Source of the DNA: Candidatus Omnitrophota bacterium
Lineage (GTDB): Bacteria > Omnitrophota > Gorgyraeia > JABMRN01 > RBG-13-46-9
Assembly: GCA_013203315.1 (NCBI GenBank)
Contig: JABMQJ010000001.1
Span: 16,382 to 80,381, forward strand
Direction: 5' to 3'
Length of the DNA stretch: 64,000 nt
Below are positions 14,001-62,440 of this stretch, in pieces. The notes under the pieces are model-generated. The model made no database searches. It worked only from the letters and a program-made list of their open reading frames with translations, and was not told the DNA's origin. A program made the translations under genes and the position numbers. How positions within the stretch are numbered: position 1 is the stretch's first letter; each line of letters begins with the position of its first letter.

Positions 14001-14001
14001 T

Positions 14002-24951: not shown

Positions 24952-24966
24952 GATACAACTCCTCGC

Positions 24967-26199: not shown

Positions 26200-26218
26200 T
26201 TTATTTTCCTCCCGGTCG

Positions 26219-27481: not shown

Positions 27482-27490
27482 GGTACCACC

Positions 27491-27772
27491 TCATATATTC
27501 TTCGTAAACCTCTTTAATAAATTTGTTATCTCGCCTATCTTCGTATACGTATCCCCTGTGCTTTTGCTCTTAAGCGCCCCGGCCACACAGCCTGCAAGGT
27601 GCTTACTAAAGACTTTCTCCCTTACCCTCATGAGAGCTCCGATGGTCGATTGGATCTGGGTCAGGATATCAACGCAATACCGACCATCATCGATCATCTT
27701 CTGCAGGCCACGAACCTGCCCCTCGATCTTCTTCAGGTAAATTATCTGCTCTTTATGGCTCATCTTTGCCAT
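27491..27772 (-). CDS. csoR: CsoR/RcnR-family metal-sensing transcriptional repressor
   Basis: 93 aa; motif GQVRGLQKMIDDGRYCVDILTQ...H...C is the CsoR-family metal-binding C-H-C pattern. Confidence 0.8.
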   Translation of the reverse strand: MAKMSHKEQIIYLKKIEGQVRGLQKMIDDGRYCVDILTQIQSTIGALMRVREKVFSKHLAGCVAGALKSKSTGDTYTKIGEITNLLKRFTKNI

Positions 27773-47639: not shown

Positions 47640-48632
47640 TTAAACCCTTAACGCGTTTAGTTCTTCTTCACCCATGGGTAAGACTTCGGGGTGGCCGGTA
47701 CTTTTCTCTTTGCAGGTAATTTTTAATGGTTGGTTCGGCTCCCCGTCGCTATACCTTGCGACTATACGCCCGGCCTTTAGAATAGAATCTTCGTCAAAAG
47801 CGCCTCTCCCGATGCCGGTCGGGCCGGTTGTATCTAGAGGATAAAAATGAAAATCGTTTTCCTTGGAGAGGCTTGATAGTTTCTTGTTTTCTTCATCGTT
47901 TCTGCCTACAATTAATTTGGCTTTTGTGTTTAGGCGAAAGTGCCTGCCGACTTTGAGAAGCTGCACGTCATTTATAGTGATATCGGGTTTATGTTTTAGC
48001 AAATCACGCATTCTCCTGGCAAAACCCGGATCCGTTAAAAGACATCCGCCCGCGGGACAAGGATAGTCATTGATGCCAAAGTCTTTGGCGAGTTGTATTT
48101 GCGGTTTTCTTGAGCGTCCGCTTATGGATAGGAACTTTTCCCTGTCAACCAGGCCTTCTTTTTCCGGGATGCTGGGCTCCATGAGCTTGGACGAAAGCGG
48201 CCTTACGATGAATCCCTTTAATCCGCTCTCGTTCTCTATGGTTCGCATGGCGTCTTTTCTCTGCGACATCGGGCGTTCTCCCAATACCTCTCCGGTGAAA
48301 ATAAAAGAAGCGCCCGTTTGCTTCATGTACTCACCTGCTTTTCTAAATATGAATATGCGGCAGTCAAGGCACGGATTCATGTTGCTGCCGTAGCCGTGCT
48401 TGGGATTTTTGACTATCTCCAAATATTCTTTGGTTATTTCGAAGACCTTAAGAGGAACACCGAGGGTATCAGCTGCTGATTTGCTGGCAAGGCATGTTTT
48501 TCCGTGGGCAGTACAGTTGCAGAATACGGTTAAAAAGTTAAGCGCTTCTACTTCTATGCCCTGTTCCAGCATAAGCTTCGTAGCTAATATGCTGTCTAAT
48601 CCCCCGGAAAGTAATGCTATTGCTTTAGTCAT
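47640..48632 (-). CDS. PP-loop ATPase (ThiI/TtuA-like sulfurtransferase candidate)
   Basis: SGGLDS PP-loop plus two Cys pairs (CNC...C and CLDC). Sits at the end of a thiazole / sulfur-carrier cluster. Confidence 0.5.
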   Translation of the reverse strand: MTKAIALLSGGLDSILATKLMLEQGIEVEALNFLTVFCNCTAHGKTCLASKSAADTLGVPLKVFEITKEYLEIVKNPKHGYGSNMNPCLDCRIFIFRKAGEYMKQTGASFIFTGEVLGERPMSQRKDAMRTIENESGLKGFIVRPLSSKLMEPSIPEKEGLVDREKFLSISGRSRKPQIQLAKDFGINDYPCPAGGCLLTDPGFARRMRDLLKHKPDITINDVQLLKVGRHFRLNTKAKLIVGRNDEENKKLSSLSKENDFHFYPLDTTGPTGIGRGAFDEDSILKAGRIVARYSDGEPNQPLKITCKEKSTGHPEVLPMGEEELNALRV

Positions 48633-48659
48633 TTAAAAAAAGTAACAGCGACTATCCTT

Positions 48660-48700
48660 CATTAATAGAAAAATAGTCGCTGCTCCTTCGTATCTTGTTT
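48660..48700 (-). terminator. candidate terminator after thi4
   Basis: AGCGACTA...TAGTCGCT 8-bp stem, followed on the minus strand by GTTACTTTTTTT. Confidence 0.4.
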
Positions 48701-48706
48701 ATAAGG

Positions 48707-49531
48707 TTACGCTACTGCTGCTTCCAGTTTGGTAGCTGCCGGTTGCGGTTTGGTGCCGTCTTTTGAAAGCATTTTCATCGCTACCTCAGCCGCTTTTTTA
48801 CCGGAAAGGAGCATTCCGCCAAAAGTCGGGCCCATGCGCGGAATTCCGTAAGCAGTGGAAACTGCCATGCCTGCTACGATAAGACCCGGAAAAATCTCGC
48901 CTGTTCTTTTCACTACTAAGTCTTCTGAAGTGTCTGCGTCCATCGGACCGAAAGTGGCCAACTTCAGCATGTGTCTTTTCTCAAGGCTTCTGCATACACA
49001 GGCGTCGTGCCCCGTAGCGTCAATTACAACCTTGGACTCCATGGAAATAGGATCAACGCAGGTGATTTGTCTTGGTAGGGCCGCTACAGGTGTCCAGTTG
49101 ATAACCGCGCCCTCTACTCTTTTGTTGCGATATACAACGTCGTCAAACCTTGTCATGTTCAAGATCTTTACGCCGGCGTCGCATGCTGACGCTATGAGTT
49201 TTGAGCAGGCGTGCGGGCCATCGGCAACTAATAAGCCGTCTTCTCTTTCCCTGTAGGGGATACCGATCTCGTCTAAAACAGTTTCTGCGGGGGATCTAAA
49301 GGTTATCGTGTTCATCAGATAACCACCTATCCAGAAACCGCCGCCGATATAATTGTTGGCCTCTACTATGAGGGTCTTAACACCCTGTCTCGAAAGGTCC
49401 CTTCCGGCTACAAGGCCACTTGGGCCTCCACCAACTATGATTACGTCGGAAATTATGTAGTCCTCGAACCATTTCGTGAATTCACTTACGATTGCTTTAC
49501 TTATTTGCGCTTCACTTACTTTTTTAAACAT
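48707..49531 (-). CDS. thi4: thiazole biosynthesis enzyme Thi4 family
   Basis: Motif DVIIVGGGPSGL and conserved Thi4 regions; 274 aa. Promoter TTGACA-17-TGTAAT at ~49540-49575. Confidence 0.8.
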   Translation of the reverse strand: MFKKVSEAQISKAIVSEFTKWFEDYIISDVIIVGGGPSGLVAGRDLSRQGVKTLIVEANNYIGGGFWIGGYLMNTITFRSPAETVLDEIGIPYREREDGLLVADGPHACSKLIASACDAGVKILNMTRFDDVVYRNKRVEGAVINWTPVAALPRQITCVDPISMESKVVIDATGHDACVCRSLEKRHMLKLATFGPMDADTSEDLVVKRTGEIFPGLIVAGMAVSTAYGIPRMGPTFGGMLLSGKKAAEVAMKMLSKDGTKPQPAATKLEAAVA

Positions 49532-49615
49532 ACGTACCTCCTTTTTATTATATTACACCACAGACGTGTTTACATGTCAATGATATTTCTAGAGATCCGG
49601 TTCTATTTTTTTGTA

Positions 49616-49855
49616 TTACTCTACTATGTCTCCCAGGAGCGACTCAACCTTTATGCCTTGCCCGGTAAGATACTTGATGCCTTTTTCGAGATTTTCCTTC
49701 GTGCCCTCCAATTCGAGCGTTACCTCACCTACTGTTTCGGTTACCTTTGCCCTCCTGATGTTGGGAATTACATCGTATTTTTTGGCCATTGTAAAAATAG
49801 CAGGCTCTTTAATGAGTTTCTGCGGGAATATTAAATGCACCATTTTCTTTGGCAT
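49616..49855 (-). CDS. NIL-domain (ferredoxin-like fold) small protein
   Basis: 79 aa; resembles the C-terminal NIL domain of MetN. Confidence 0.45.
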   Translation of the reverse strand: MPKKMVHLIFPQKLIKEPAIFTMAKKYDVIPNIRRAKVTETVGEVTLELEGTKENLEKGIKYLTGQGIKVESLLGDIVE

Positions 49856-49857
49856 AA

Positions 49858-50673
49858 TTACTCCTCCTTTTTCTTTTTTATACTGCAGAACTGTTCATAA
49901 TCTATTAGCTTAGTTACCGTAGGTTTTTCGCCGCAAATCGGGCACTTTGGGTCTTTTGGGACCTTTACCTGGCGAAAGCTGGAGTCCAGCGCATTAAACA
50001 CAAGGAGTTTTCCGGCTAAAAGATCACCTATGTTTAAAATGTATTTAAGGACCTCGTTTGCCTGGATTACACCGATTGCACCTGCAACTGCGCCGAGGAT
50101 CCCTGCTTCCTGACAGCTTGGCACAAACCCCGGAGGCGGCGGTTCGGGAAATAGGCATCTGTAGCATGCGCTTTTGCCCGGTAAAATTGTTATCGCCTGG
50201 CCGTCAAACCTGAATATTCCTCCGTGGGAGAGTGGTTTCTTTTCCAGAACGCATGCATCGTTTACCAAATATCGCGTAGGAAAATTGTCCGATCCGTCTA
50301 CAACGATGTCGTATTCTTTTATAACATCGGTTATATTCTTTGACGTGAGACGCATGTTTAACGCTTTTACTTTGACATCCGGATTTATGGCGTTTAATCT
50401 TTGTTTGGCAGATTCAACTTTTGCGACACCTACGGTATTCGTATCGTGCACAATTTGTCTCTGCAAATTGTTGAGCTCTACTTTATCCGAATCTACGATA
50501 CCGATCGTGCCGATACCGGCTGAGGCCAGATATAAAGCGCATGGCGAGCCTAAGCCACCTGCGCCTATTATGAGAACTTTGCCTCCGAGAAGTTTTTCCT
50601 GGCCCTTTCCGCCGACTCTAGGCAATATAATTTGCCTTGAATAACGTTCTATCTGATCTTCTTTTAGGCTCAT
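49858..50673 (-). CDS. ThiF/MoeB-type E1-like sulfur-carrier adenylyltransferase
   Basis: Motif GAGGLGSP and two C-terminal CxxC pairs (CYRC...CPIC). Confidence 0.85.
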
Positions 50674-50951
50674 CGACTTCCACCTGCTATTGCCGGAATT
50701 ATCGAAACTTCGTCCCCGTCTTTTAAGGGTGTGGCGTCCTGTTTTAAGAAACGCACATCCTCCTCATTTACGTAGATATTTATAAATCTGCGAACCTTAC
50801 CTTGGTCGTCACAGATCCTCTCTTTTATCCCGGGAAAATCTTTTTCCAGGTTCTCGATTAACTCCCCTACATTTTTACCGTTTACCTCTACTTCGGCCCT
50901 GTTGCCGGTAAGTTTTTGTAACGGTGTCGGAACTCTTACTTTTACTGCCAT
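50670..50951 (-). CDS. ThiS/MoaD-like sulfur carrier protein with C-terminal GG-SR extension
   Basis: 93 aa beta-grasp ending ...[10 protein letters not shown]. Start taken as MAVKV; its ATG overlaps the ThrC-like stop. Confidence 0.6.
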
Positions 50952-50952
50952 C

Positions 50953-52188
50953 TTAAACCCCCAGTCGTTTATTTTTAGCTTTTTCAAACGCTTCCAAACT
51001 CGGTTTTATCTTGAGCGGTTTTCCTATTTTTTCCGCAACAGCTTCCTGAGTTTTTAAACCATTGCCTGTTATACACACGACAATTGATTCATTCTTCGGA
51101 ATTTTTCCCTGTTCTATCAGTTTCTTTGTAACGCCAAGCGTTACGCCTCCTGCGGTTTCGGTAAATACGCCTTCGGTCTTGGCCAAAAGCTTAATCGCTT
51201 CTACTATTTCCTCGTCCGATACGTCTTCCGCAAAACCACCCGATTCCTTTACAGTTCCGACAGCATATATGCCGTCAGCAGGATTCCCGATGGCTAAAGA
51301 CTTCGCAATGGTATTTGGCTTAATAGGCTTTATGATATCCGAACCTTCTTTTATCGCGGTAACTATCGGCGCGCATCCTGTGGCCTGGGCAGCATAAATT
51401 TTTGTGTCGACTTTATCAATCAGCCCCAGTTTCTTAAATTCGTGCAAGCCCTTCCATATTTTCGTGATAAGTGAGCCGCCCGCGCAAGGAACTACGATGT
51501 GCTTGGGCGCTTTCCATCCCAGCTGTTCGGCAATTTCATATCCGTATGTTTTCGACCCTTCGGCGTAATACGGCCTTATGTTTATGTTAACAAAGGCCCA
51601 TTTATATTTTGCTGCGACTTCCGAACAAAGCCTGTTAACCTGGTCATAATTCCCTTCGACAGCCACCAAATTTGGATCATATATAAGTGTCCCTATAACC
51701 TTTCCTTTTTCAAGGTCAGCGGGTATAAATATATATCTTTCCAGGTTAGCTATGGCGGACTGCGCTGCTACTGAATTCGCAAGATTACCCGTCGAAGCGC
51801 ATGCAACAGTTTTGAAACCGAATTCCTTCGCCTTTGATAGCGCTACCGCGACCACTCTATCTTTGAAGGAAAGTGTCGGGTGGTTTACAGAGTCGTCTTT
51901 TATGTAGAGTTCTTTCACGCCCAGCACCTTTTCAAGATTCCTGGCTCTTATTAAAGGTGTGTATCCTGAATTTAGACCGTCTGTAGGGTCTTTGTCTATG
52001 GGCATAAGTTCTCTATAACGCCATAGGTTCTTGGGTCTTGACTCTATTTCCTTCCTGGTCAATATCTTCTTTATCCATTCGTAATCATAGTCCACCTCTA
52101 GCGGCCCGAAACAGTATTCGCATACATATATGGGGTCCTTCGGATAAGCCCTGCCGCATTCCCTGCACTTTAATCCTTTTACATAACT
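50953..52188 (-). CDS. threonine-synthase-like PLP enzyme (ThrC family) with N-terminal zinc ribbon
   Basis: N-terminal CRECG...CEYC zinc ribbon plus a PLP fold II domain (SFKDR). Sits immediately upstream of the sulfur carrier; candidate MetM-like homocysteine synthase. Confidence 0.65.
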
Positions 52189-52195
52189 CATTTTG

Positions 52196-52435
52196 TCACC
52201 TCGATTTCCTGACAATAAGATTCCAATACCCGTTTTTTTCTTCAACTTTTAAAATTTCGTGCCCTTCTTCCTTAGTGCTGGCCGTAACGTTCTTAATCGG
52301 CTCACCGTCGTCAAGGAGAACCTCCAGTATCTTGCCCGCTTGCATCGATTCAAGTTTTAATTTCGTTTTTACAAAATTCATCGGGCAAGGAACGCCCTTT
52401 AAGTCTAATATCTGATCTATTTTTATATCACTCAT
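52196..52435 (-). CDS. TusA/SirA-like sulfurtransferase
   Basis: 79 aa two-layered alpha/beta fold with Cys in GVPCPMNFV. Confidence 0.6.
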   Translation of the reverse strand: MSDIKIDQILDLKGVPCPMNFVKTKLKLESMQAGKILEVLLDDGEPIKNVTASTKEEGHEILKVEEKNGYWNLIVRKSR

Positions 52436-53322
52436 AAAATCTTGTCCTTTGCTTTCTTAAGCCCTGTCCTGTCCAGCGCTTCTCCAAATCGCTCACCCTT
52501 GTTTGCTATTTCTTTATAGTACTCGACTGATTTTTCTATGATTTTGGGGATCTTTTTTTCCTCTACAAACTCTGCTATTTCAGTTCCGAATCGAGGAAAA
52601 CGTCCCACCTTACCGCCTATGTAAACCTTAAAACCGACTTTCTTTGTTTTCCAGGCGCTTACCGGGCATACCCTCACACAATCCCCTTCGAAGTAACAAT
52701 TTTCTTTTCTGTACACGGGTTTTTTGTCTTTATCCATTACAATAGCCGGTTGCCCTTTTCCCCTTGCGCAGACTTTTTCACAAACCTTTGCGCAAAGCGT
52801 ACAGTGTATGCACGCATCAAGATCTACTTCGGGTTCGCCCTGCGCCTGGAATCCCAAATCGTTCTCCTGCGGCTTGGCGCAAGAATTCATGCAGCCTGTA
52901 ATTGCTACTTTGAATTTTTTGGGAACCTCTTTGCCAAACGCGACTTTATCAAGTTTCATAGCCAACTTTTCAGCATCAACAAAACCAAATCTACATACGC
53001 TCGACCCCGGACAGGCAATGAGGTTTCTGGATCTCGGGCCGCATGCGCCTTTTAATATTCCGAACTTCTTCATATCTTTGAGTAAACTATTTATATTTTT
53101 TATGTGTATCCACGGAATTTCTATCCCCTGCCGGGTCGAGACGTGGACATAATCTTTGCCGTATTTTTTGGCAAGTATGGCGTATTTTTTTAGTTTTTCC
53201 GCTTTTAAATGCCCGCCGGGAATTCTTGTACGCAGGATAAAATAATCCTTTTGTATTTGTTTCAAGACCCCGCCGGTTCTCAGATCCAAAAGTTCTGTTT
53301 CATTGTATTTTTTTAATGCCAT
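52432..53322 (-). CDS. small nitrite/sulfite reductase-like protein (siroheme/4Fe-4S domain plus ferredoxin motif)
   Basis: CPGSSVCRFG...TGCMNSC siroheme-[4Fe-4S] Cys motif, plus CIHCTLCAKVC. Confidence 0.6.
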   Translation of the reverse strand: MALKKYNETELLDLRTGGVLKQIQKDYFILRTRIPGGHLKAEKLKKYAILAKKYGKDYVHVSTRQGIEIPWIHIKNINSLLKDMKKFGILKGACGPRSRNLIACPGSSVCRFGFVDAEKLAMKLDKVAFGKEVPKKFKVAITGCMNSCAKPQENDLGFQAQGEPEVDLDACIHCTLCAKVCEKVCARGKGQPAIVMDKDKKPVYRKENCYFEGDCVRVCPVSAWKTKKVGFKVYIGGKVGRFPRFGTEIAEFVEEKKIPKIIEKSVEYYKEIANKGERFGEALDRTGLKKAKDKIL

Positions 53323-53334
53323 CTCTTTGTCTCC

Positions 53335-54477
53335 TTAGGCCCCAAAATACCTTTCCATCGAAAAGTATCTCTCACCCGTATCGGGTAAAATTGTAACTAC
53401 AAGTTTATCTTTTCCCAACTTTTTAGCGACCTCAAGCGCCGCCCAGACTGCCGCACCTGCGGATATCCCCACAAACAATCCTTCGAGTGTGGCAAGCTTT
53501 CTTGAGGTTGTAAAAGCATCGTCGTCATTTACCTGTATTATTTCATCAATCACTTTTTTATTAAGGACATCCGGAATAAATCCGGCGCCGATACCCTGTA
53601 TTTTATGTGGACCGGGCTTCCCGCCGGATAATACTGGGCTCGCCTTTGGTTCAACAGCAATAATTTTAACTTCCGGATATTCTTTTTTTAATGCTTCTCC
53701 TACACCTGTTATGGTCCCGCCCGTCCCAACGCCGGAAACAAAGGCGTCTATCTTTTTATCAACTGCCTCAAGTATTTCTTGAGCGGTTGTATCTCTATGA
53801 GCCTGCGGGTTTGCCTTATTTTTAAACTGCTGAGGCATAAAGCTATTCGGTGTTTTCTTAAGAAGCTGTTCGGCTTTTTTTATGGAGCCCTGCATCCCCT
53901 CTGCGCCCGGGGTAAGAACTACTTGTGCGCCAAAAGACTTAAGTATGTAAATTCTTTCGAGACTCATGGTTTCAGGCATTGTAAGAATGCATTTATAACC
54001 CTTTACAGCAGATACCATGGCAAGGCCAATTCCGGTATTCCCGCTTGTCGGTTCAATTATGGTTGCACCTTTTTTCAGGAGGCCCTTACGCTCGGCGTCT
54101 TCTACCATCGAAAGGCATATCCTGTCTTTAACACTGCCGCCGGGATTATAAAATTCAAGTTTTCCAAAAATATCCGCCATGCCGGGCTCGACAATATTAT
54201 TCAGCTTGACCATGGGGGTGTTGCCTATCAATTCTAATATATTGCGCGCCGCTTTTCGGCCGCCTTTTTCACAGCCGCCGCCCATGAAATATACAAATTC
54301 CAGCTTGTCATTGGTTTTAAGCGAGGTGTCGCTGTATTTACCTCTCTCTATAATCTTCTCGTTTAATTCGACCGTAACGACTTCCGGCTTTATATTCTTG
54401 TCCGCCAGGAGCTCGGCAACGCTCATGTCATCGCCGATTTCTTCCTTTTTGCCATTTAAATAGATTGTCGTCATCAT
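53335..54477 (-). CDS. fusion of an N-terminal ThiS/MoaD-like domain to cysteine synthase (CysK/CysM family)
   Basis: The first ~65 aa form a ThiS-like beta-grasp ending FVYFMGGG; then cysteine synthase motifs GNTPMV, KLEFYNPGGSVKDR and TSGNTGIGLA. Confidence 0.7.
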   Translation of the reverse strand: MMTTIYLNGKKEEIGDDMSVAELLADKNIKPEVVTVELNEKIIERGKYSDTSLKTNDKLEFVYFMGGGCEKGGRKAARNILELIGNTPMVKLNNIVEPGMADIFGKLEFYNPGGSVKDRICLSMVEDAERKGLLKKGATIIEPTSGNTGIGLAMVSAVKGYKCILTMPETMSLERIYILKSFGAQVVLTPGAEGMQGSIKKAEQLLKKTPNSFMPQQFKNKANPQAHRDTTAQEILEAVDKKIDAFVSGVGTGGTITGVGEALKKEYPEVKIIAVEPKASPVLSGGKPGPHKIQGIGAGFIPDVLNKKVIDEIIQVNDDDAFTTSRKLATLEGLFVGISAGAAVWAALEVAKKLGKDKLVVTILPDTGERYFSMERYFGA

Positions 54478-54489
54478 CCCGATACCTCC

Positions 54490-55773
54490 TTATTTTTTTA
54501 AAACCTCACTGATTACTTCCAAAGTTTTCTCTATGTCCCCCTTGCTGTGCGCAAGGGATAAGAAATTCGCTTCAAATCCGGACGGAGAAAAATATATACC
54601 TTGTTTCAATAAGCCGTGAAAAAATCTTTTAAATGAATCCGTATCTTGTTTTTTCGCGGTCCTGTAGTCTACGACAGCCTCATTTGTAAAAAATACGCTA
54701 AACATTGAACCGACGCGGTTTACTCTAAGGGCTATTTTGTCCGCAGCGGCTATTTTTTCTATTCCCTCACATAATTCTTCGGTTTTGTTTTTCAGTTCTG
54801 CGTAAGGATTTTTTTCTTTCAATATATTTAAAGTTGTGATGCCAGCTTTTACGGCTATGGGGTTACCTGATAATGTCCCCGCCTGGTAAACACCACCCTG
54901 GGGCGCCAGAAGCGATATAACATCTTTCCTGCCGCCAAAAGCGCCTACCGGCAGTCCGCCTCCTATGATCTTTCCGAGGCAGGTTATATCCGGTATTATA
55001 CCAAAAAGTGCCTGTGCGCCACCATATAAATACCGAAATCCGGTAATAACCTCATCAAATATTAAAAGTGCACCATGTTGATCAGCTATTTTTCTTAACC
55101 CTTTAAGGAAACCCGCCTCCGGAGGAATGACGCCACAATTTCCGGCTACAGGTTCAACAATTATGGCGGCCAAATCTTCTTTGTACTTTTCGGCTATTTT
55201 TTCCGTTTCCTCGATATCATTGTAAGGCGCTACAATCGTGTGCTTGGTAAAGTCTTTCGGCACTCCTAGACTATCGGGCATGCTAAGCGTAGCAGCACCG
55301 GATCCTGATTTTACCAAAAGATAGTCCGCGTGGCCGTGATATGCGCCTTCGAATTTTATAATTTTGTTTCTTTTGGTATAGCCCCTTGCAAGTCTTATAG
55401 CACTCATTACCGCTTCTGTGCCGGAGCTGGTAAGCCTCACCTGTTCGACCGAAGGGATCGCTTCAACAATAAGTCGCGCCAACTCTGTCTCTTTTGTAGT
55501 GGCCGCACCGAAGCTCGTCCCATCTTTTACGGCTTTTTCAAGCGCCTTTGTTACTTCCGGATACGCGTGGCCGAGTATCATAGTGCCCCATGAAAGGCAA
55601 TAGTCGATGAATTCGCCGCCGCACTCACCGTAAAGCTTTGAGCCGCTGCCGCGCTTTACGAACACGGGATAGCCGCCGACAGCCTTGAAAGATCTTACGG
55701 GGCTATTTACGCCACCCGGGATGAATCTCTTGGCATCATTTAATAAATCTTTCGCGATTCCTACCCCAGCCAT
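54490..55773 (-). CDS. hemL: glutamate-1-semialdehyde 2,1-aminomutase
   Basis: Class III aminotransferase; 427 aa; HemL family pattern. Confidence 0.9.
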   Translation of the reverse strand: MAGVGIAKDLLNDAKRFIPGGVNSPVRSFKAVGGYPVFVKRGSGSKLYGECGGEFIDYCLSWGTMILGHAYPEVTKALEKAVKDGTSFGAATTKETELARLIVEAIPSVEQVRLTSSGTEAVMSAIRLARGYTKRNKIIKFEGAYHGHADYLLVKSGSGAATLSMPDSLGVPKDFTKHTIVAPYNDIEETEKIAEKYKEDLAAIIVEPVAGNCGVIPPEAGFLKGLRKIADQHGALLIFDEVITGFRYLYGGAQALFGIIPDITCLGKIIGGGLPVGAFGGRKDVISLLAPQGGVYQAGTLSGNPIAVKAGITTLNILKEKNPYAELKNKTEELCEGIEKIAAADKIALRVNRVGSMFSVFFTNEAVVDYRTAKKQDTDSFKRFFHGLLKQGIYFSPSGFEANFLSLAHSKGDIEKTLEVISEVLKK

Positions 55774-56720
55774 TTTATAACCTCTTTTCCGAAATAAGTT
55801 ATTATACGATCCGCACCTGCTCTTTTCATAGAAGTTAGCGCCTCCAGCACAAGTTCTTTTTCCTTGGCACTGTCTCCATCGGCAAGTTTTTTAATCATGG
55901 TATATTCTCCGCTTACGCTGAAAGCGGCTATTGGTGTCTTAAATTTTTTCTTTGCTTTGTAAAGGATGTCCAGGTACGCAAGTGCGGGTTTAACCATGAC
56001 GAGATCCGCACCTTCTTTAATATCCTCTTCTATTTTCGCTAAACCCCGATCGGTGTTTCTGGGGTCCAGTTGATAACTCGTTCTATCCCCAAACTTGGGC
56101 GACGAATTAAGCGCCTCTCTAAACGGCCCATAGAAATTAGACGCGTACTTGGCTGAATAAGCCAGTATCTTTGTGGATTTGAAGCCTTCGCAGTCTAAGG
56201 CGTGTCTTATCACCGCGACTTGGCCGTCCATCACAGCAGAAGGCGCAACAAAATCCGCCCCTGCCCTAGCGTGTGAGACGGCAATTTTAGCCAGCGTCTC
56301 CAATGTAGCTTTTTTATCTACGGCCAGCTTCGCTTTTTGCTTTCCTTTTTTTAATATCCTGCAATGCCCGTGAGAGGTATAAGCGCAAAGGCAAACATCC
56401 GTAACAACTTTTAAGTTTTTGAATTCTTTCTTTATTGCCCTTATGGCTTTCTGGATGAGGCCGAATTCATGATAAGCGGCAGAAGCTGTATCGTTTTTTG
56501 TTTTGGACACGCCAAAAAGAAGCACCTCTTCGATGCCCCGGGCCGATCTTATGTCCTTGATCAAGTTATCGACAGAAAAGTGATAAATACCGGGCATCGA
56601 ACGGATAGGCCGCTTCACATCCTTACCACCAACAACAAAATAAGGAGTAATTATGTCTTTTTTCTTTAGTTTAAAAGTCCGCATCGTTTCGCCTCTTTTA
56701 GTGTCACGCGACCTATGCAT
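55761..56720 (-). CDS. hemB: porphobilinogen synthase (delta-aminolevulinate dehydratase)
   Basis: Conserved active-site Lys region; start is likely the internal MRTFKLKK. Confidence 0.9.
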   Translation of the reverse strand: MHRSRDTKRGETMRTFKLKKKDIITPYFVVGGKDVKRPIRSMPGIYHFSVDNLIKDIRSARGIEEVLLFGVSKTKNDTASAAYHEFGLIQKAIRAIKKEFKNLKVVTDVCLCAYTSHGHCRILKKGKQKAKLAVDKKATLETLAKIAVSHARAGADFVAPSAVMDGQVAVIRHALDCEGFKSTKILAYSAKYASNFYGPFREALNSSPKFGDRTSYQLDPRNTDRGLAKIEEDIKEGADLVMVKPALAYLDILYKAKKKFKTPIAAFSVSGEYTMIKKLADGDSAKEKELVLEALTSMKRAGADRIITYFGKEVIKWLG

Positions 56721-58069
56721 CTAATCTTTACGGCCTTGGGCACTTTCTTATATCTTTTTTTGAAACTTCTCACCGTTGACGGGCTCGTAAACATTATCTC
56801 GTCGAAATTCGTAATATCAAGATCCGGAAGATTATCCGGTATTGTATTTTTGTAAGCTACGCATGGAAAAATCGTGGCGCCTTCTTTTTTTAATCCCTCG
56901 GTCAGGCCCTTGTCAGCAATATCCGAACGCGGTAACAAAATATTCTTTTTGATAAGATTTATTTTTTTCAGTTCCGCAAGCAACCCCTTCGAAGATTCGT
57001 CCTTCGGGACAAGATCCGGAAATACGCCGAACTCTTTTAATTTTTCGGCAGTAGAGTTTCCGATAGCGGCAACCTTGATACCCCCCATTTTACGGGTGTC
57101 GAGCCTGAGTTTAAACAGCCGCTCGAAGAAGTAGAGCGCGGCGTAACGGCTCGTAAAGACAATCCAATCAAAAGCTTTAAGTTTTCTTATAAGCTCGTCA
57201 AGCTTTGTATAATCTTTTAGAGGTTTTATTTCAATAAGCGGAAGATGAAAAATTAAACCCTTCTCATAAGGCCTGTGATTTGAGAGTCCCGTGAAAAGAA
57301 TTTTCCTGGATTTTTTAAACCAGCCAAATTCTTTTTCTTTCCTCACCACTTCGCCGATTATAATAATTGCGGGCGCTTTTATATTTTCTTTTTTGACAAT
57401 AGCGCCTATATACTTTAATCTGCCGGTTACTGTCCTTTGGTTTATTTTCGAAACGTTGGAAATAACGGCAACGCTTGTGTTTTTGTTTTTGCCTTTTGAG
57501 ATAAGCGTATCCGCGATCCGGGAAATGCTTCCTACTGCCATGTATAAAACAATCGTTCCACCTTTTGCAAGCTCATCCCAATTGATAGAGCTTTTTTTCT
57601 TTTTAGGGTCCTCATGCCCGGTAACAAATGCAACGCTTGAAGCGAAACCCTTTGACGTAAGCGGAATACCACTATAACAGGCTGCCGCTTGAGCTGCGGT
57701 AACTCCGGGAATCACGGAAAACTCTATTCCTTTCTTGATTAAACCCCTGATTTCTTCAGTGGCCCTGCCAAAGACAAAAGGATCTCCGTTTTTTAGCCTC
57801 ATTACATTTTTACCCTTTTGGGCCCTATCTACAAGCAGCTTGTTTATCAAATTCTGCCTTTTGGAAAATCCGTCGCTATGACGGACCCTGTCCAGTTTAT
57901 CGGCGCATACGAGTTCTGAGGCGGGGTTTGCGTATTGCAAAACCCTCTTATCTACAAGCCGGTCGTATACAATAACATCGGCCTGCTTAAGAGCCTCTAG
58001 GCCCTTGACCGTGATCAAATCCGGCTCGCCGGGCCCTGCGCCTGCTAAAAAAACTTTACCCTTTTTCAT
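56666..58069 (-). CDS. uroporphyrinogen-III C-methyltransferase / uroporphyrinogen-III synthase fusion (CobA-HemD)
   Basis: N-terminal SUMT motifs (FLAGAGPGEPDLIT) plus a C-terminal HemD domain; 467 aa. Confidence 0.85.
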   Translation of the reverse strand: MKKGKVFLAGAGPGEPDLITVKGLEALKQADVIVYDRLVDKRVLQYANPASELVCADKLDRVRHSDGFSKRQNLINKLLVDRAQKGKNVMRLKNGDPFVFGRATEEIRGLIKKGIEFSVIPGVTAAQAAACYSGIPLTSKGFASSVAFVTGHEDPKKKKSSINWDELAKGGTIVLYMAVGSISRIADTLISKGKNKNTSVAVISNVSKINQRTVTGRLKYIGAIVKKENIKAPAIIIIGEVVRKEKEFGWFKKSRKILFTGLSNHRPYEKGLIFHLPLIEIKPLKDYTKLDELIRKLKAFDWIVFTSRYAALYFFERLFKLRLDTRKMGGIKVAAIGNSTAEKLKEFGVFPDLVPKDESSKGLLAELKKINLIKKNILLPRSDIADKGLTEGLKKEGATIFPCVAYKNTIPDNLPDLDITNFDEIMFTSPSTVRSFKKRYKKVPKAVKIRCIGRVTLKEAKRCGLLN

Positions 58070-58746
58070 ATTACAGCCGTTTCTCTTGAATCTATTTTTG
58101 AGAGAATTTCTATTAAGTCAGAATCCTCCGCCCTTGCGATAACTGCAAGACGCCCCTGCAAGGGGTGCGGCTCAAGTATATGTGGCGGTAAAATTTCGGT
58201 TATTCTTTCTTCTAATCCCAGACGAATCAAGCCTGCAGCGGCTATTACTATGGCATTTAAGCTTGTTGTTTCCAATATCTTAAGTCTTTCCTGGATATTA
58301 CCCCGGATATCTACAAGCTCAAAATCCGGCCTGAATTTCTTCAATGCCTCTTTACGGCGAATGCTGCTTGTCCCGATCCGCGCGCCAAATGGTAGACTAT
58401 CTAACTTTAATCCATCTCTTGAAACTAAAACATCGTACGGATCGATCGATTCCGTAAGCGCTGCTATGTGAAACCCCTCCGCTAAAACAAAAGGCACGTC
58501 TTTTGCGCTATGCACGGCAAAATCAATTTCACCTAAAAGAAGCGCCTGATCTATCTCTTTTGTAAAGAAGTCCTCACCTTCTATATACGATATGGGTGTG
58601 AACTTATCTTTGTCGCCGCAGGTATCTATACCCACTATTTCGGCTTTAAGGGACGTTCCTGCGTCATTTAAAGCATTTAAAATTTCTTCTACCTGCTTTA
58701 ACGCGAGAGGACTAGTTCTGGTTCCGATTTTGTAAGTTTTCGCCAT
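58066..58746 (-). CDS. hemC: hydroxymethylbilane synthase (porphobilinogen deaminase), apparently lacking C-terminal domain 3
   Basis: N-terminus KIGTRTSPLALKQ and domains 1-2 are present, but the ORF stops at 226 aa (...SRETAVI). The region carrying the dipyrromethane-cofactor Cys (GGCQVP in E. coli) is missing. Confidence 0.65.
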   Translation of the reverse strand: MAKTYKIGTRTSPLALKQVEEILNALNDAGTSLKAEIVGIDTCGDKDKFTPISYIEGEDFFTKEIDQALLLGEIDFAVHSAKDVPFVLAEGFHIAALTESIDPYDVLVSRDGLKLDSLPFGARIGTSSIRRKEALKKFRPDFELVDIRGNIQERLKILETTSLNAIVIAAAGLIRLGLEERITEILPPHILEPHPLQGRLAVIARAEDSDLIEILSKIDSRETAVI

Positions 58747-59729
58747 ACTGTACCTGCTTCTATATCTATAATTTGTCTTACTTTTTTTGCGATTTCTGTT
58801 TTCTTTTCTATATTTTCTTTAATCACAGTATCCAAGTCTTCCAGGCCGAATAAATCTACGTTTTCGATTCTTTTTACCTCGGGATCAACGTCCCTTGGTA
58901 AGGCAAGATCTATTATTAATAGTTTCCCGTTTTGCTTCTCTTTGAAGGTTTCTTTCTTGATTATAAAATGCGGGCTGGCGGTAGCCGTTATAACGATATC
59001 CGCCTTACCCAGTGATTCTCTTAGGTTATCAAATCTTACCGCCTGCGCCCCGATCTGGGAAGCAAACTCTCGTGCCCTGGAAAAGGTCCTATTTGATACG
59101 AAAACTACAGAGGCCCTTTCTTTTTCCAGGTATTTCAAAACAAGTTCCGTAACCTTCCCTACCCCTATGATCAAAATTATTTTATTTTCCAGCCGGCCTA
59201 TTTTTTTCTTTATAAAGTCTATGGCCACGCTTCCCACCGATACTTTCCCCTCGGATATCTTCGTCGTCGCATGCATGTCCTTGGCAAAGAAGAACGCAGA
59301 ATTAAATACGCCGTCTAATAGCTTATCCGTAAAACCAATGCTTTGACTTTTTAAAAAGGAGGCCCTAACCTGGCCCAGCACTTGTGTTTCGCCGAGTATA
59401 AGAGAATCAGTTCCACTCGCAACTGAGAACAAATGCTTTAACGCTCCCTCGTCCGCATACCTATATAGGTAAGGCGAGATACTTTCTTTATCGATTTGGT
59501 GATACCGTGAAATAAAGTCTTCCAATTCCCATAGCCCCTTATCTTTATTGTCTGTGCTTGCATAAATCTCTGTTCTATTACACGTCGAGATTATAATAGC
59601 TCCGTTTAAACCGGTGTTTTCCTTTAAAAAAGAGATCTCATCCCTTACCCGCTTTTTGGAAAAAGCGATTCTTTCCCTGAACTCTACCGGACTATATTTA
59701 TGGTTTGTTCCTACTAATATGAGATTCAC
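58698..59729 (-). CDS. hemA: glutamyl-tRNA reductase (short form)
   Basis: IISTCNRTEIY catalytic Cys motif and NADPH domain; 343 aa, with a shortened C-terminal dimerisation region. Confidence 0.8.
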   Translation of the reverse strand: MNLILVGTNHKYSPVEFRERIAFSKKRVRDEISFLKENTGLNGAIIISTCNRTEIYASTDNKDKGLWELEDFISRYHQIDKESISPYLYRYADEGALKHLFSVASGTDSLILGETQVLGQVRASFLKSQSIGFTDKLLDGVFNSAFFFAKDMHATTKISEGKVSVGSVAIDFIKKKIGRLENKIILIIGVGKVTELVLKYLEKERASVVFVSNRTFSRAREFASQIGAQAVRFDNLRESLGKADIVITATASPHFIIKKETFKEKQNGKLLIIDLALPRDVDPEVKRIENVDLFGLEDLDTVIKENIEKKTEIAKKVRQIIDIEAGTVWRKLTKSEPELVLSR

Positions 59730-60169
59730 TTTATTTCTATTTCCTCTTCGGTGATCTTGCCTTCTACGATCTTAAATGATCTTACGCTTGGACTTGCCTC
59801 ATCCTTTATTGAAACTATCACGTATGACGAGTCAGGATAGTAGGCCAGCTTCACATCATGCGACGAAGGAAAGGCTTCTGTTTCTAAATGTGAGTGGTAT
59901 ATGCCAACCATTTCCAGGCCCAGGGTTCTTATCTCTTTGGTGACTTTAAGCTGTTCTTTAGGGTCCATTAAAAATGTCTGTCCGCTGTTGTCCGCATTGG
60001 CCATAAGATATATCTTCGTTACTTTTGATATCCGCCGAAGCCTACCTGCTGCGAATTTCTCCTCTGGCGTAGGCGGACCGGCAAGTATACCGCAAGCCTC
60101 GCTGGGGGCCTCTTTCTTTGAATACTCCACTAAATCATCTATATGCTTCCGGCTTAAAGAAATCATCAC
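59726..60169 (-). CDS. JAMM/MPN+ metalloprotease (Mec+-like)
   Basis: JAMM motif HSHLETEAFPSSHD (HxHx7Sx2D); 147 aa. Confidence 0.75.
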   Translation of the reverse strand: MMISLSRKHIDDLVEYSKKEAPSEACGILAGPPTPEEKFAAGRLRRISKVTKIYLMANADNSGQTFLMDPKEQLKVTKEIRTLGLEMVGIYHSHLETEAFPSSHDVKLAYYPDSSYVIVSIKDEASPSVRSFKIVEGKITEEEIEIK

Positions 60170-60177
60170 AGGGCTCC

Positions 60178-61143
60178 TTAAATCTTGTCAAGTACTGCTG
60201 TCAGTAAAAATGATATGATAAGCGCAATAATCGGTGTCACGATCCAGGTCATATATGTTTTTCTTGTTACAGGGTTAGTAAATGTTGTCTTATGTCCGTT
60301 TTTTAGACCTCCTACGGCAAACAGACAAGCCACTTTGATCATTACAAAGGACTGCGGCACACCTAAGAGAGAGGCCACTATCATAAGCGTTCCGGTAACA
60401 AGGCATACAATCGTCGCCGATAAAACGCCTAACGGCACTATTTTTTCGCCCGCGGTCTTAAGCGAGCCATGGAATACAAGGCTTCCTAACCCAAAAATAG
60501 GCGCGATTAAAATAAGTCCGAGCGTTGTACTTAAAATTCCGGCCCCGGAAAGCGGACCCACGACATTGGCTACATTATTCGCGCCCACTGAAAAGGCGTT
60601 ATAGCAACTTGCAATTATCACGAATAGTTTCAACCTATCGGTGTGATTAACCAGTTTTTCATAGATCCAGAAATTATTATTTTTCGGCGGATATACGACT
60701 TTTCCCAAAAGATATGTTAAGAAATAGCCTAAAACCGGCAAAAGTACCCAAAAAGGCACCAGGTATAATAAGGTTTTGGTGTATACACTCCTGTAATACA
60801 GACCCACACCTAATATAGATGCGACCGTAACCAGGCTCGTGGACTGTGGCACATGCAATCTATTCGCCACAAATAAACTGAGCGTCGCTGAAATCAAAAT
60901 CACGAGGATAACGTTAATCCCCATAAGCTCATGCGGAATGATCTTATTGCCCAAAGTCTCTGAAACAGGCTTACCTATAAGAACAGCCCCTAGAAAGACA
61001 AATATAGCAAAAAGAATCTGCGCCCGAGCTCTGGTGATAATTTTGCCACCGTGCGCGGCGGCAAAAGAAGCGCCAAAGTTGCTTCCGCCCATATTAAGAG
61101 CGAAAAGAATAGCCAGTATTGCTAAAACGATATAGTGTGCCAA
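60178..61143 (-). CDS. PiT-family inorganic anion permease (candidate sulfate permease CysP-like)
   Basis: PHO4/PiT-family repeats (GANNVAN, two halves); sits in a sulfur-assimilation context. Confidence 0.65.
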   Translation of the reverse strand: MAHYIVLAILAILFALNMGGSNFGASFAAAHGGKIITRARAQILFAIFVFLGAVLIGKPVSETLGNKIIPHELMGINVILVILISATLSLFVANRLHVPQSTSLVTVASILGVGLYYRSVYTKTLLYLVPFWVLLPVLGYFLTYLLGKVVYPPKNNNFWIYEKLVNHTDRLKLFVIIASCYNAFSVGANNVANVVGPLSGAGILSTTLGLILIAPIFGLGSLVFHGSLKTAGEKIVPLGVLSATIVCLVTGTLMIVASLLGVPQSFVMIKVACLFAVGGLKNGHKTTFTNPVTRKTYMTWIVTPIIALIISFLLTAVLDKI

Positions 61144-61164
61144 GTATTGCCTCTTCTAGATACC

Positions 61165-61887
61165 TTAGATGCCGTCGCCGCCAATATTTTTAAGGGGTCT
61201 GGTGTGAATACCGCATTCACCGCCGCATTTGCTCGTGCCGATCCAGCGGCCCGCGCGCTCATCGTCTTCAACTGTAATTTTTGTGCAGGGCGCGCAGCCC
61301 AATGAACGGTACCCTAACCCATAGAGAGGATTTACTTTTACTTCGTTAAGCGCCAGATACTCCCAGACCTCTCTTTCCTTCCAGATAAGAATCGGATTTA
61401 ATTTTACAAGGCCCTTGTCCCGCTCCTCTACCTCTTTAAAGTCTGTACGAGTTCTGCCTTCGGTGCAACGCAGGCCCGTAATCCAGCATGTTACCTTCAT
61501 CTCTTCTACGGCTTTTCTTGTGGGCTCTACCTTTAATATATCGCAGCACTTATCAGGTTTAGTTTCGTAAAGCTTATCCGGTATTTCAACGTCATTTTTG
61601 TAAACCTTGAGCTCCGGGAACCTGGCAACTTCTTCATTCATAAATTTAATGGTTGCCTTTGGTTTATAGCGCGTAGTTACTATAAAGCCTCTTATCTTGG
61701 GGTTTACTTTTCTTGCAAGATCCCAAATAGCAACGGAATCTTTCCCCAGGCTATTGGCCACCACAAGCCCATCACCGTATTTCTTATACGCTTCTTCGAT
61801 AAGCGCAAGCGACCTTTCAACTTTTTCTTTAAAATTCAGCGTGTCGACTAGTTTTTTTAGATCATCGTTGTTCTTCAATATGCTCAC
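61165..61887 (-). CDS. APS/PAPS reductase family protein with Fe-S Cys motifs (CysH-like)
   Basis: PAPS reductase PP-loop-like fold; KCCDIL...GCAPC...KCGGEC Cys pattern. Confidence 0.75.
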   Translation of the reverse strand: MSILKNNDDLKKLVDTLNFKEKVERSLALIEEAYKKYGDGLVVANSLGKDSVAIWDLARKVNPKIRGFIVTTRYKPKATIKFMNEEVARFPELKVYKNDVEIPDKLYETKPDKCCDILKVEPTRKAVEEMKVTCWITGLRCTEGRTRTDFKEVEERDKGLVKLNPILIWKEREVWEYLALNEVKVNPLYGLGYRSLGCAPCTKITVEDDERAGRWIGTSKCGGECGIHTRPLKNIGGDGI

Positions 61888-61914
61888 TTTCTTTTCCTCC
61901 TTTACAATACATCG

Positions 61915-62337
61915 TTATATTTGGTAAGCAAATGCTCCCCTTTTTCCTTTGGACCTCTCCGCTATATCTTCAAAAGTGACTTTATCCAGTATTTTGGCTA
62001 TAGCGCCATCGACCTCATCCCAAATCGCCGCAAATACAGATTCTCTTTTTGCAACTGATTTGGACGCAGTTAAAAGAGGGCCTCCTATCCGGCGCATCAC
62101 TTCGCCCAGCGTTATTTCATTCGGAGGCTTGGCCAGGTTATACCCGCCGTCCTTACCTCTTATGCTCGAGACCTGACCCATTCTTTTGAGTTGAATTAGA
62201 ATTTGTACCAAGTATCTAATAGGTATACTCTGTCTATCGGATATAGTGTGAATTTGTAGCGGCGCATCCCCCGGCCAATGCAGTGATAGCTCCAAAAGCG
62301 CCTTACATGCATAGTCACATCTTGCTGAAATTCTCAT
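61915..62337 (-). CDS. Rrf2 family transcriptional regulator (CymR/IscR-like)
   Basis: Rrf2 wHTH N-terminus (MRISARCDYACKALLELS); 140 aa. Confidence 0.8.
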   Translation of the reverse strand: MRISARCDYACKALLELSLHWPGDAPLQIHTISDRQSIPIRYLVQILIQLKRMGQVSSIRGKDGGYNLAKPPNEITLGEVMRRIGGPLLTASKSVAKRESVFAAIWDEVDGAIAKILDKVTFEDIAERSKGKRGAFAYQI

Positions 62338-62373
62338 ATTAACTCCCTACTTGCCGCCGGCAAGCTTTATTGC

Positions 62374-62440
62374 TATACTTTACTATGTTTATCAACATAG
62401 TAAAGTATACACTAAAAGAGCCATACTGTCAAGAAAAACT
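62374..62440 (-). promoter_or_regulatory. promoter TTGACA-17-TATACT with perfect 14-bp inverted repeat operator TATACTTTACTATG-N8-CATAGTAAAGTATA, upstream of the Rrf2 gene
   Basis: Minus strand reads tTTGACAgtatggctcttttagtgTATACTttactatgttgataaacatagtaaagtata. The inverted repeat spans the -10 and TSS and is followed by the GC palindrome TTGCCGCCGGCAA. Confidence 0.55.

Follow-up and report, generated by a model that had tools for sequence, protein, structure and literature searches.

A sulfur-assimilation operon of Candidatus Omnitrophota with a ThiS carrier fused to cysteine synthase and a second carrier beside a ThrC-like enzyme

The DNA analysed here is a window of 64,000 nucleotides from a Candidatus Omnitrophota bacterium (assembly GCA_013203315.1, contig JABMQJ010000001.1, positions 16,382 to 80,381), and the system of interest is a string of sulfur genes toward its right end in which a ThiS-type sulfur carrier is joined in frame to a cysteine synthase and a second, MoaD-like carrier lies beside a ThrC-family enzyme. 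All 18 of the listed genes were found in the list of open reading frames (ORFs) as intact minus-strand ORFs at their expected positions, with domains supported by Pfam and NCBIfam, as an initial annotation made from the letters alone had described them: a single minus-strand string holding every gene named. A head-to-tail run extends from 62432 to ~48640, its intergenic gaps short or replaced by overlaps. The one strong promoter and operator in front, the tight or overlapping packing and the hairpin after the Thi4 gene all point to a single-operon structure, and the string is proposed to be an autoregulated assimilatory sulfur operon of ~13.8 kb in an anaerobic host.

The fusion protein (53335-54477, minus strand) is 379 aa long. 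Its first 68 residues (54274-54477) form a ThiS-type sulfur-carrier domain ending FVYFMGGG, which matches TIGR01683 over residues 5-68 at 68.8 bits (cutoff 37.45) and PF02597 at 45.6 bits (threshold 22.5); the N-terminal region that had been called ThiS-like thus scores far above threshold with both ThiS models. A junction linker, CEKGGRKAARN (54241-54273), comes next; JAMM is proposed to cut at the N-terminal edge of this linker. The remainder is a CysK-type O-acetylserine sulfhydrylase domain (53335-54240) that matches TIGR01139 over residues 81-375 at 468.6 bits (cutoff 350.95). The initial annotation had left this synthase as CysK/CysM; the fusion and the CysK type are borne out, and the CysM type is not, the cysM model giving 291.5 bits against 468.6 for the cysK model. 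The nearest PDB entries are canonical CysK (2EGU, 402 bits), and the top 60 PDB matches are of the CysK/CBS type, the M. tuberculosis CysM not being among them.

The fusion is real and common. PF02597 and PF00291 (ThiS plus PALP) occur together in 120 of the 120 closest database clusters, which are 71-77% identical to it, one exact match aside; most of these are from Omnitrophota, and the source-named ones are Candidatus Omnitrophota proteins labelled solely "cysteine synthase A". When related genomes in GTDB were examined, as had been suggested, in-frame fusions were found in five Omnitrophota species and one Saganbacteria genome, so that an architecture first described as unusual is in fact not rare within Omnitrophota. 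Full-length tblastn matches in L007, L013, L018 and L020 (related loci are cited here by number) had to be rejected as fusions, being two adjacent or overlapping genes in different frames, and the same split thiS/cysK arrangement is seen in Omnitrophota L009. That thiS and cysK lie in different overlapping frames in L009 and L013, where a single indel could interconvert the two states, is what could be said for the fusion being an artefact, a stop codon having been lost or a frameshift introduced between the genes in sequencing, assembly or gene calling. This explanation is effectively refuted by the identical 379-aa protein called on 8 contigs from several different samples, by the 120 distinct clusters with the fusion (drawn from JGI, ENA, NCBI and Logan) and by the in-frame fusions of the Omnitrophota and Saganbacteria genomes.

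The junction itself is strongly patterned. M-G-G-G forms invariant columns in an alignment of 53 homologues and is present at every junction inspected, and the residues after it, a linker of 6-19 aa, vary in both length and sequence up to the conserved CysK N-terminus, VLELIGxTP. Many fusions read MPFSD, SPFSD or LPFSD after GGG, the ancestral CysK start methionine having been replaced by S, L or E; with the ancestral start codon joined in frame and often mutated, CysK would be obtainable only as a fusion in such proteins. In the AlphaFold (AF2) model of the fusion, with a mean predicted local distance difference test score (pLDDT) of 78, a beta-grasp at residues 1-62 and the CysK fold are confident and residues 62-73 fall below 50; the linker is predicted from this model to be exposed and flexible or disordered. 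The 120 clusters, the invariant MGGG, the lost CysK start and the disordered linker, read together, indicate that the fusion is under selection.

Two further genes of the operon bear directly on what might happen at that junction. The JAMM/MPN+ metalloprotease (59726-60169, minus strand), a Prok-JAB protein of the Mec/HcyD/desampylase-like kind (PF14464, 78 bits), has an intact metal site, E24...H92-S-H94-x7-S102-x2-D105, and also matches the desampylase model NF041370 at 74 bits, under the cutoff of 130. The MoeB/ThiF/UbaA-type E1 adenylyltransferase (49858-50673, minus strand; PF00899, 283 bits, with MoeB and UbaA matches in NCBIfam) is 271 aa long and consists of a ThiF domain only, with no rhodanese; its gene overlaps that of the second carrier by 4 nt. 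The synteny of JAMM and E1 with the ThiS-CysK fusion is conserved among relatives.

Relatives with a separate ThiS show where the carrier would have to end. In Saganbacteria L018 and in the Planctomycetia-labelled metagenome-assembled genome (MAG) L020 it stops at GGG-LL and GGG-SL, respectively, each with an ATGA overlap with cysK, and the tails after GGG are 3 residues in L009, 19 in L013 and 21 in L007, so that the split orthologues overall stop 2-21 residues past GGG. L018 has two ThiS genes, one preceding CysK and one preceding MetY. In L012 a free ThiS (ending GGG-K) precedes a MetY-type enzyme, E1, JAMM and a sulfite reductase joined to TusA, and in Bacteroidales L047 the order is cysK, thiS (ending GGG-EK) and a MetY-like ORF, assigned by N-terminal sequence only; MetY was identified by Pfam in L011, L012 and L018. 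The 68-residue ThiS domain, searched exhaustively with HMMER, gave 66 representatives at E < 1e-10. Among the 44 best of these, which were inspected, just 2 have the exact GGG terminus, and the rest carry either a tail of 1-35 residues or a fusion partner, which is CysK, TusA (P0258, P0299) or a MetY-like enzyme (P0304). Judged by these termini, this carrier subfamily is nearly always made as a pro-protein that would need JAMM trimming, the CysK fusion being the extreme case. A TusA domain after GGG is seen in some metagenomic proteins of the subfamily (P0258, P0299 and P0255), and P0304 looks like a partial ThiS-MetY fusion.

In Saganbacteria L011 the fused ThiS is the sole carrier beside E1 and JAMM, which argues that it is a working carrier; together with the invariant MGGG and the short tails of the split orthologues, this supports release of ThiS by JAMM. 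There is precedent for such a cut. The MoaD-MoaE fusions, M. tuberculosis MoaX (PMC4326299) and Deinococcus DR2607, which is cut by DRJAMM (PMC8832034), likewise place the carrier in front of its partner enzyme and have an internal Gly-Gly at the junction, and cleavage after that Gly-Gly is required for activity and is done by JAMM in Deinococcus and archaea (PMC4326299, PMC8832034). For ThiS-CysK the same reaction may be supposed by analogy, though here the partner is a cysteine synthase instead of MoaE and the pathway is a different one.

ThiS might instead never be cleaved and carry no sulfur, acting as a docking or regulatory module that recruits E1, TusA or the CymR-like repressor to CysK. 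A regulatory complex of CysK with CymR, an Rrf2-family repressor, does exist in Bacillus, and the regulator of the present operon is CymR-like. N-terminal ubiquitin-like (Ubl) domains that stay uncleaved and have non-carrier roles also exist, the Ubl-ThiF fusions being an example (PMC1779556). We regard this as unlikely, since GGG is invariant and the residues beyond it vary, orthologous free ThiS genes stop a few residues past GGG, the synteny with JAMM and E1 is conserved, and L011 offers E1 and JAMM no other carrier.

The second carrier lies beside a pyridoxal phosphate (PLP) enzyme of the ThrC family (50953-52191, minus strand; PALP by Pfam) with an N-terminal zinc ribbon, which is proposed to be a MetM-like homocysteine synthase. 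The carrier, of the ThiS/MoaD/SAMP type (50670-50951, minus strand; 93 aa; PF02597, 70 bits), ends AIAGG-SR, matches archaeal MoaD/SAMP1 models in NCBIfam and is proposed to be MetO-like. The ThrC-like gene runs to 50953 and the carrier gene begins at 50951, so that the two abut; a free-standing carrier ending AGG-SR beside a ThrC-family enzyme and a ThiF/MoeB E1 had been recognized from the start, and genes and domains are as then given. The pair is conserved in Omnitrophota, in a Planctomycetia MAG and in Nonomuraea, where tblastn of plasmid and chromosome records found a ThrC-like gene, likewise encoding the zinc ribbon, at 53% identity (423 bits), followed directly by a 91-aa MoaD-like gene that ends AVAGG and is 51% identical to the window carrier. 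Orthologues of this second carrier follow the pattern of the ThiS subfamily: they end in AGG, AGGR, AGGSQ or AGGSR, or run on from AGG into a NIL domain.

The ThrC-like protein passes generic threonine synthase models, including the threshold of TIGR00260, and its matches to structurally solved bacterial ThrCs score 176-197 bits, against the 423 of the Nonomuraea protein. In a neighbour-joining tree (319 columns) the carrier- or NIL-linked ThrC-like proteins from Omnitrophota, the Planctomycetia MAG, two Chloroflexi and Nonomuraea form one clade in 100 of 100 bootstrap replicates. This clade stands apart from the four bacterial ThrCs with solved structures, from Arabidopsis ThrC (the outgroup) and from zinc-ribbon "ThrC" genes without a carrier neighbour, so that the separation from canonical threonine synthases on which the early reading of this enzyme depended is found. 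Plasmid zinc-ribbon "threonine synthases" of Haloterrigena, Chlorohelix, Aliarcobacter and Priestia, at 34-41% identity, were set aside, having no carrier nearby and lying outside the clade; as such carrier-less proteins also have the zinc ribbon, the ribbon alone is not diagnostic. A homologue search seeded with the Nonomuraea ThrC-like protein returned Streptosporangiales matches only. A Microcystis "ThrC" is reported to be 51.6% identical to the characterised Streptomyces albulus MetM and the neighbouring carriers 47% identical to each other; the 53% and 51% seen with Nonomuraea are at the same level and fit MetM/MetO. The pair thus probably belongs with MetM/MetO, as its sequence relationships to the Nonomuraea genes suggest.

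A stand-alone NIL-domain protein of 79 aa (49616-49855, minus strand; PF09383, 58 bits) is a possible methionine-sensing or partner subunit. Its gene follows the ThrC-like gene in both Omnitrophota and Chloroflexi loci, and at L020:14169-14711 a MoaD-like carrier is in frame with a NIL domain, separated from it by AGG and a 14-aa linker; this second kind of carrier pro-protein ties NIL functionally to the MoaD-like carrier. NIL serves in MetN as the methionine-binding regulatory domain and is found in the methanogen homocysteine system as well, and its recurrence as a partner points the ThrC-like enzyme toward methionine metabolism.

Downstream of the NIL gene lies Thi4 (48707-49531, minus strand; TIGR00292, 248 bits, cutoff 148), an ADP-thiazole synthase whose motif DATGHDA has histidine in place of the suicide cysteine of the yeast enzyme; by this motif it is of the sulfide-dependent, non-suicide type and would need no carrier. 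The initial annotation had the carrier route lead to thiazole also: Thi4 is present, as it said, and carrier-based thiazole formation falls away, Thi4 being sulfide-dependent. Between Thi4 and the last gene of the string is a 17-bp hairpin with a T-run (48644-48684, minus strand), a terminator or attenuator. A match of this hairpin (48633-48688) to the Rfam plastid psbA 3' untranslated region element, at 25 bits against a gathering threshold of 55.8 (E = 0.037), is almost certainly due to chance. The last gene (47640-48632, minus strand) encodes a PP-loop ATPase of the ThiI/MnmA-like kind with a C-terminal NFACT-R_2 RNA-binding domain (Pfam and NCBIfam), probably a tRNA thiolase, and is probably reached by read-through, since the T-run of the hairpin abuts its ATG. 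Homologues directly neighbour Rrf2 in L005 and L010; in L014, L021, L072 and L074 they lie upstream of Rrf2/CysK or near it. The protein, which has several cysteine motifs, is a recurrent neighbour of Rrf2-CysK across Omnitrophota, Planctomycetia, Deltaproteobacteria and Elusimicrobiota MAGs. This linkage recalls the cymR-yrvO-mnmA arrangement of Bacillus.

With a thiazole synthase and a probable tRNA thiolase in the string, the two carriers could conceivably serve the thiolation of cofactors and tRNA, ThiS working for thiamin and the MoaD-like protein for molybdopterin or, in the manner of TtuB, for the PP-loop protein, with the ThrC-like protein a true threonine synthase. The ThiS domain does pass the thiS equivalog, the free carrier matches archaeal MoaD/SAMP1 models, the PP-loop gene stands at the 3' end of the string and the ThrC-like protein is above the TIGR00260 threshold. 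The idea seems very unlikely all the same. No thiG, thiH, moaE or TtuA-type gene was found in the window, and thiazole would come from Thi4; the PP-loop gene lies behind the hairpin and in other genomes sits beside Rrf2-CysK, not beside carriers. The ThrC-like/MoaD-like pair is translationally coupled, is kept in actinomycetes and is phylogenetically apart from the solved ThrCs, and MetM is routinely misannotated as threonine synthase, according to the authors of GapMind.

The sulfur for the carriers would come from genes in the first part of the operon. CysH, an Fe-S-type reductase of adenosine 5'-phosphosulfate (APS) or 3'-phosphoadenosine 5'-phosphosulfate (PAPS), lies at 61165-61887 (minus strand; PF01507; NF002537, 163.5 bits, cutoff 154), and its motifs KCCD...GCAPC (CC...CxxC, Fe-S) and ECGIH can be read in the sequence. 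It is followed by a PiT/PHO4-family permease (60178-61143, minus strand; PF01384), CysP-like and putatively for sulfate uptake, whose only NCBIfam match is SulfPermCysPBac, at 238 bits and so under the cutoff of 400. Five genes at 54490-59729 (minus strand; Pfam and NCBIfam), hemA, hemC, cobA-hemD, hemB and hemL, cover the siroheme precursor branch from glutamyl-tRNA to precorrin-2; sirB and sirC, for the last siroheme steps, were not found in the window. HemA (58698-59729, minus strand), of 343 aa, is without the C-terminal dimerisation region, HemC (58066-58746, minus strand), of 226 aa, ends at profile position 221 of 293 and has no C-terminal domain, the two genes overlap by 49 nt, and in L008 hemC is fused to cobA-hemD.

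The small siroheme sulfite reductase (52432-53322, minus strand; NIR_SIR_ferr, NIR_SIR and Fer4) has 296 aa and a 2x[4Fe-4S] ferredoxin insert; it is AsrC-like (154 bits, under the model cutoff), and motifs CX5C and CX3C are readable in it. TusA/SirA, a sulfurtransferase with a CPxN active-site cysteine (52196-52435, minus strand; PF01206, 82.6 bits), is encoded separately here, and is joined to sulfite reductase in L005, L011 and L012 (verified with Pfam for L011) and to the ThiS subfamily in P0258 and P0299; these fusions in relatives support a direct hand-over of sulfur. The large sulfite reductases with C-terminal TusA (L005:11226-13553, L011:13582-15678 and L012:3996-6329) are of ~700-775 aa.

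The first gene of the operon encodes an Rrf2-family regulator (61915-62337, minus strand; PF02082, 102 bits). Its best specific NCBIfam match is CymR, at 84.3 bits, which misses the equivalog cutoff of 195, followed by IscR at 71, and it has no Cys at residues 85-110, where Fe-S cysteine ligands were looked for. A sigma-70-type promoter, TTGACA-17-TATACT (62404-62432, minus strand), lies 5' of this gene and, with 11 of 12 positions, is the best match of the scanned region. It is accompanied by a perfect inverted repeat, TATACTTTACTATGTT-N4-AACATAGTAAAGTATA (62374-62409), with two 16-nt arms (62374-62389 and 62394-62409) that are 100% complementary, a 4-nt spacer and overlap with the -10 box. 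The perfect palindrome noted earlier is therefore exact, and it is unique: one copy occurs in the window and none is expected (100 shuffles). It is presumed to be the Rrf2 operator. A half-site, TACTAWGTT, just 3' of the -10 box recurs in the same place upstream of Rrf2 in L005, L006, L010, L014 and L070, the last of these being a Chloroflexi genome. An Rfam scan of the window at gathering thresholds gave no match, and so no riboswitch for S-adenosylmethionine (SAM) or thiamin pyrophosphate.

From these elements a pathway is proposed in which two ubiquitin-like carriers, each serving its own PLP enzyme, would take reduced sulfur to cysteine and homocysteine, and which we consider moderately probable. 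It builds on the observed gene content, domains, catalytic motifs, junction invariance, synteny, split and fused orthologues and placement of the ThrC-like protein; each chemical step, each cleavage and the pairing of carrier with enzyme are drawn by analogy with the M. tuberculosis CysO, Wolinella HcyS and Streptomyces MetM/MetO systems. The CysP-like PiT permease would import sulfate, which enzymes encoded elsewhere would activate to APS; CysH would reduce APS or PAPS to sulfite, and the small siroheme sulfite reductase, with cofactor precursors from the five hem genes, would reduce the sulfite further, TusA taking the reduced sulfur. The single JAMM would mature both carriers, cutting ThiS-CysK after MGGG and trimming SR off the MoaD-like carrier, and the single rhodanese-less E1 would adenylate the exposed Gly-Gly ends on the way to thiocarboxylates. 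CysK would then use the ThiS thiocarboxylate with an activated serine, and the MetM-like enzyme the MoaD-like thiocarboxylate with O-phosphohomoserine. After an S-to-N acyl shift, JAMM would hydrolyse the carrier-amino acid adducts, giving cysteine and homocysteine and recycling the carriers, and Thi4 would make the thiamin thiazole directly from sulfide.

Several points weigh against this pathway. The CysK domain, 60-65% identical to the CysK of Bacillales, which are ordinary sulfide-using enzymes, and ~72% identical to an unfused Omnitrophota CysK in L010, may simply use free sulfide, as its canonical type would suggest; a synthase of this type does not reveal by its sequence whether it depends on a thiocarboxylate. 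The operon also encodes a Thi4 that depends on sulfide, which implies a supply of free sulfide. The pairing of carrier with enzyme comes from adjacency only, and the assignment to MetM/MetO is indirect, passing through Nonomuraea as a syntenic actinomycete proxy. In Chloroflexi, NIL comes after members of the ThrC-like clade too (L051:12249-13745 and L070:15454-16976), with CysK and a cystathionine-type enzyme in the vicinity but neither carrier nor E1 nor JAMM nearby; either the carrier is encoded elsewhere or the clade can work without one. Lastly, substrates and upstream steps lie outside the inspected DNA, the window having no sat, cysC, cysE or thrB. ATP sulfurylase and APS kinase had already been reported as absent from the window, and the same is true of the 9 kb past its right end: none of sat, cysC, cysDN, cysE, thrB, metX/Y or a second thrC was found in the ~73 kb of contig thus inspected.

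The operon might instead be a conventional sulfate-to-sulfide operon in which CysK acts mainly on free sulfide and the carriers are secondary or protective, for instance in storage or in channelling under low sulfide or oxidative stress. The canonical CysK type of the domain, the unfused CysK in the otherwise similar Omnitrophota clusters L010 and L015, and the sulfide-dependent Thi4 within the operon are all in keeping with such facultative use. It is nevertheless fairly unlikely, as fused lineages cannot make CysK without ThiS and the invariant MGGG argues for a functional tie between the carrier and CysK.

Operons with a carrier, a JAB protease, a rhodanese-less E1, SirA/TusA, PAPS reductase and sulfite reductase were described as a class by Iyer, Burroughs & Aravind (2006; PMC1779556, Table 1, row 4e), with the rule that an E1 without rhodanese is accompanied by SirA/TusA (PMC1779556). 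The present operon has the carrier with a putatively removable extension past Gly-Gly (MGGG-linker-CysK, and AGG-SR), the JAMM with an intact metal site, the rhodanese-less E1 with TusA, and sulfite reductase with PAPS/APS reductase. The MetY of the class (a Cys_Met_Meta_PP gene) was not found in the window, CysK and the ThrC-like enzyme standing in its place.

The HcyS/HcyD/HcyF/MetY/Sir system of Wolinella succinogenes is reportedly the characterised member of class 4e. It is like the present operon in having a ThiS-type carrier with an extension after GG, JAMM, rhodanese-less E1, SirA/TusA and the sulfite and PAPS reductases in one cluster, and the relatives L011, L012, L018 and L047 have MetY beside the same ThiS subfamily. 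It differs in that the ThiS extension is one alanine there and a whole CysK here, in that homocysteine synthesis is assigned here not to MetY but to a ThrC-like enzyme that has a MoaD-type carrier to itself, and in that here siroheme precursor genes and Thi4 lie inside the operon and sat and cysC outside the cluster. Both the M. tuberculosis CysO and the Wolinella HcyS systems (for the latter, Krishnamoorthy & Begley 2011) are cited in PMC6225789. The M. tuberculosis CysO-CysM-Mec+-MoeZ system (Burns et al. 2005; PMC3227635) resembles the one proposed here in the use of a carrier thiocarboxylate as donor to a PLP cysteine synthase, the release of cysteine by JAMM and an E1 common to carriers, but its synthase is the O-phosphoserine-specific CysM, whereas that of the window is of the CysK type with a ThiS-type carrier covalently fused to it, and MoeZ has the rhodanese that the E1 here lacks, with TusA instead.

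The Streptomyces albulus MetM/MetO pair (Hasebe et al. 2024, as described in bioRxiv 10.1101/2024.10.14.618325 and PMC12172450) shares with the operon a ThrC homologue followed directly by a MoaD-like carrier, JAMM (Mec) and E1 (MoeZ) as helpers, and ~50% identity across phyla. Unlike it, the pair described here has no SAM riboswitch, lies inside a sulfate-reduction operon and has a NIL-domain protein alongside. Bacillus subtilis, for its part, has a cysH-cysP-sat-cysC-ylnDEF operon and the regulatory pair of CymR (an Rrf2 protein) and CysK. In common with it the Omnitrophota operon has CysH followed by the PiT-family CysP, siroheme genes in the operon, a cluster-less Rrf2 and a PP-loop tRNA thiolase gene tied to the regulator; it differs in lacking sat and cysC, in an Rrf2 under the CymR cutoff, and in carriers, E1 and JAMM that are without Bacillus counterpart.

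Among the fusions of the 2006 survey are ThiS-ThiG, MoaD-MoaE and ThiS at the C-terminus of sulfite reductase, and no ThiS-cysteine synthase (PMC1779556); nor was a description of such a fusion found in the literature searched, the coverage of which was incomplete, so that an earlier one is possible. What appears to be new is threefold: ThiS fused to CysK, a ThiS-type carrier together in one operon with a MoaD-type carrier, each paired with a PLP enzyme of its own, and C-terminal pro-sequences as a general property of the ThiS carrier subfamily. These are all variations on known themes, the operon class having been predicted in 2006 and members of it characterised since.

Elsewhere in the window, minus-strand genes at 1-7246 form an Mbh/Mrp-type membrane-bound [NiFe] hydrogenase or complex-I-like module, and Wood-Ljungdahl genes for carbon monoxide dehydrogenase/acetyl-CoA synthase lie past the right end (L087); together these suggest an anaerobic, possibly acetogenic lifestyle. 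An oxidative-stress cluster at 9004-16000 (minus strand) has a second Rrf2 regulator at ~14002-14409 and includes two rubrerythrins, desulfoferrodoxin, rubredoxin, ferritin, a NifU-like protein, glutaredoxin, a thioredoxin-reductase-like flavoprotein and a YHS/ArsP_1 permease. A NifS-like cysteine desulfurase and a NifU scaffold (28031-29832) are among the few plus-strand genes of the window, and GC and AT skew change sign in the 2-kb bin that holds them; adjoining them, at 21811-27772 (minus strand), are a CsoR-like repressor and a CusCBA-like efflux system of the resistance-nodulation-division family.

A broader generalization may be offered tentatively, and we rate it somewhat short of an even chance: that Omnitrophota and some Saganbacteria make CysK only as a Ubl pro-protein, from which ThiS would be released by JAMM much as ubiquitin is from the ribosomal-protein fusions of eukaryotes; that one JAMM and one E1 would serve two chemically different carriers; that all the sulfur of cysteine and homocysteine would pass through thiocarboxylates and not through free sulfide; and that the fusions to CysK, TusA, MetY and NIL would be instances of a general pro-carrier strategy, fixing stoichiometry and gating flux by proteolysis. 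The operon makes a clean biochemical test case for such ideas, carrier and client enzyme being encoded as a single polypeptide whose GGG junction is invariant and for which a dedicated JAMM is at hand.

There are consequences for annotation as well. The fused proteins with a source name are all labelled "cysteine synthase A" and MetM-like enzymes "threonine synthase"; with such labels, the synthesis of methionine and of threonine is probably misassigned in metabolic reconstructions of Omnitrophota and related MAGs, and the dependence on carriers missed. So far few organisms, namely M. tuberculosis, Wolinella and Streptomyces, have been shown to use protein-thiocarboxylate routes to cysteine or methionine, and the operon described here suggests that both routes may run side by side in a widespread uncultured phylum.

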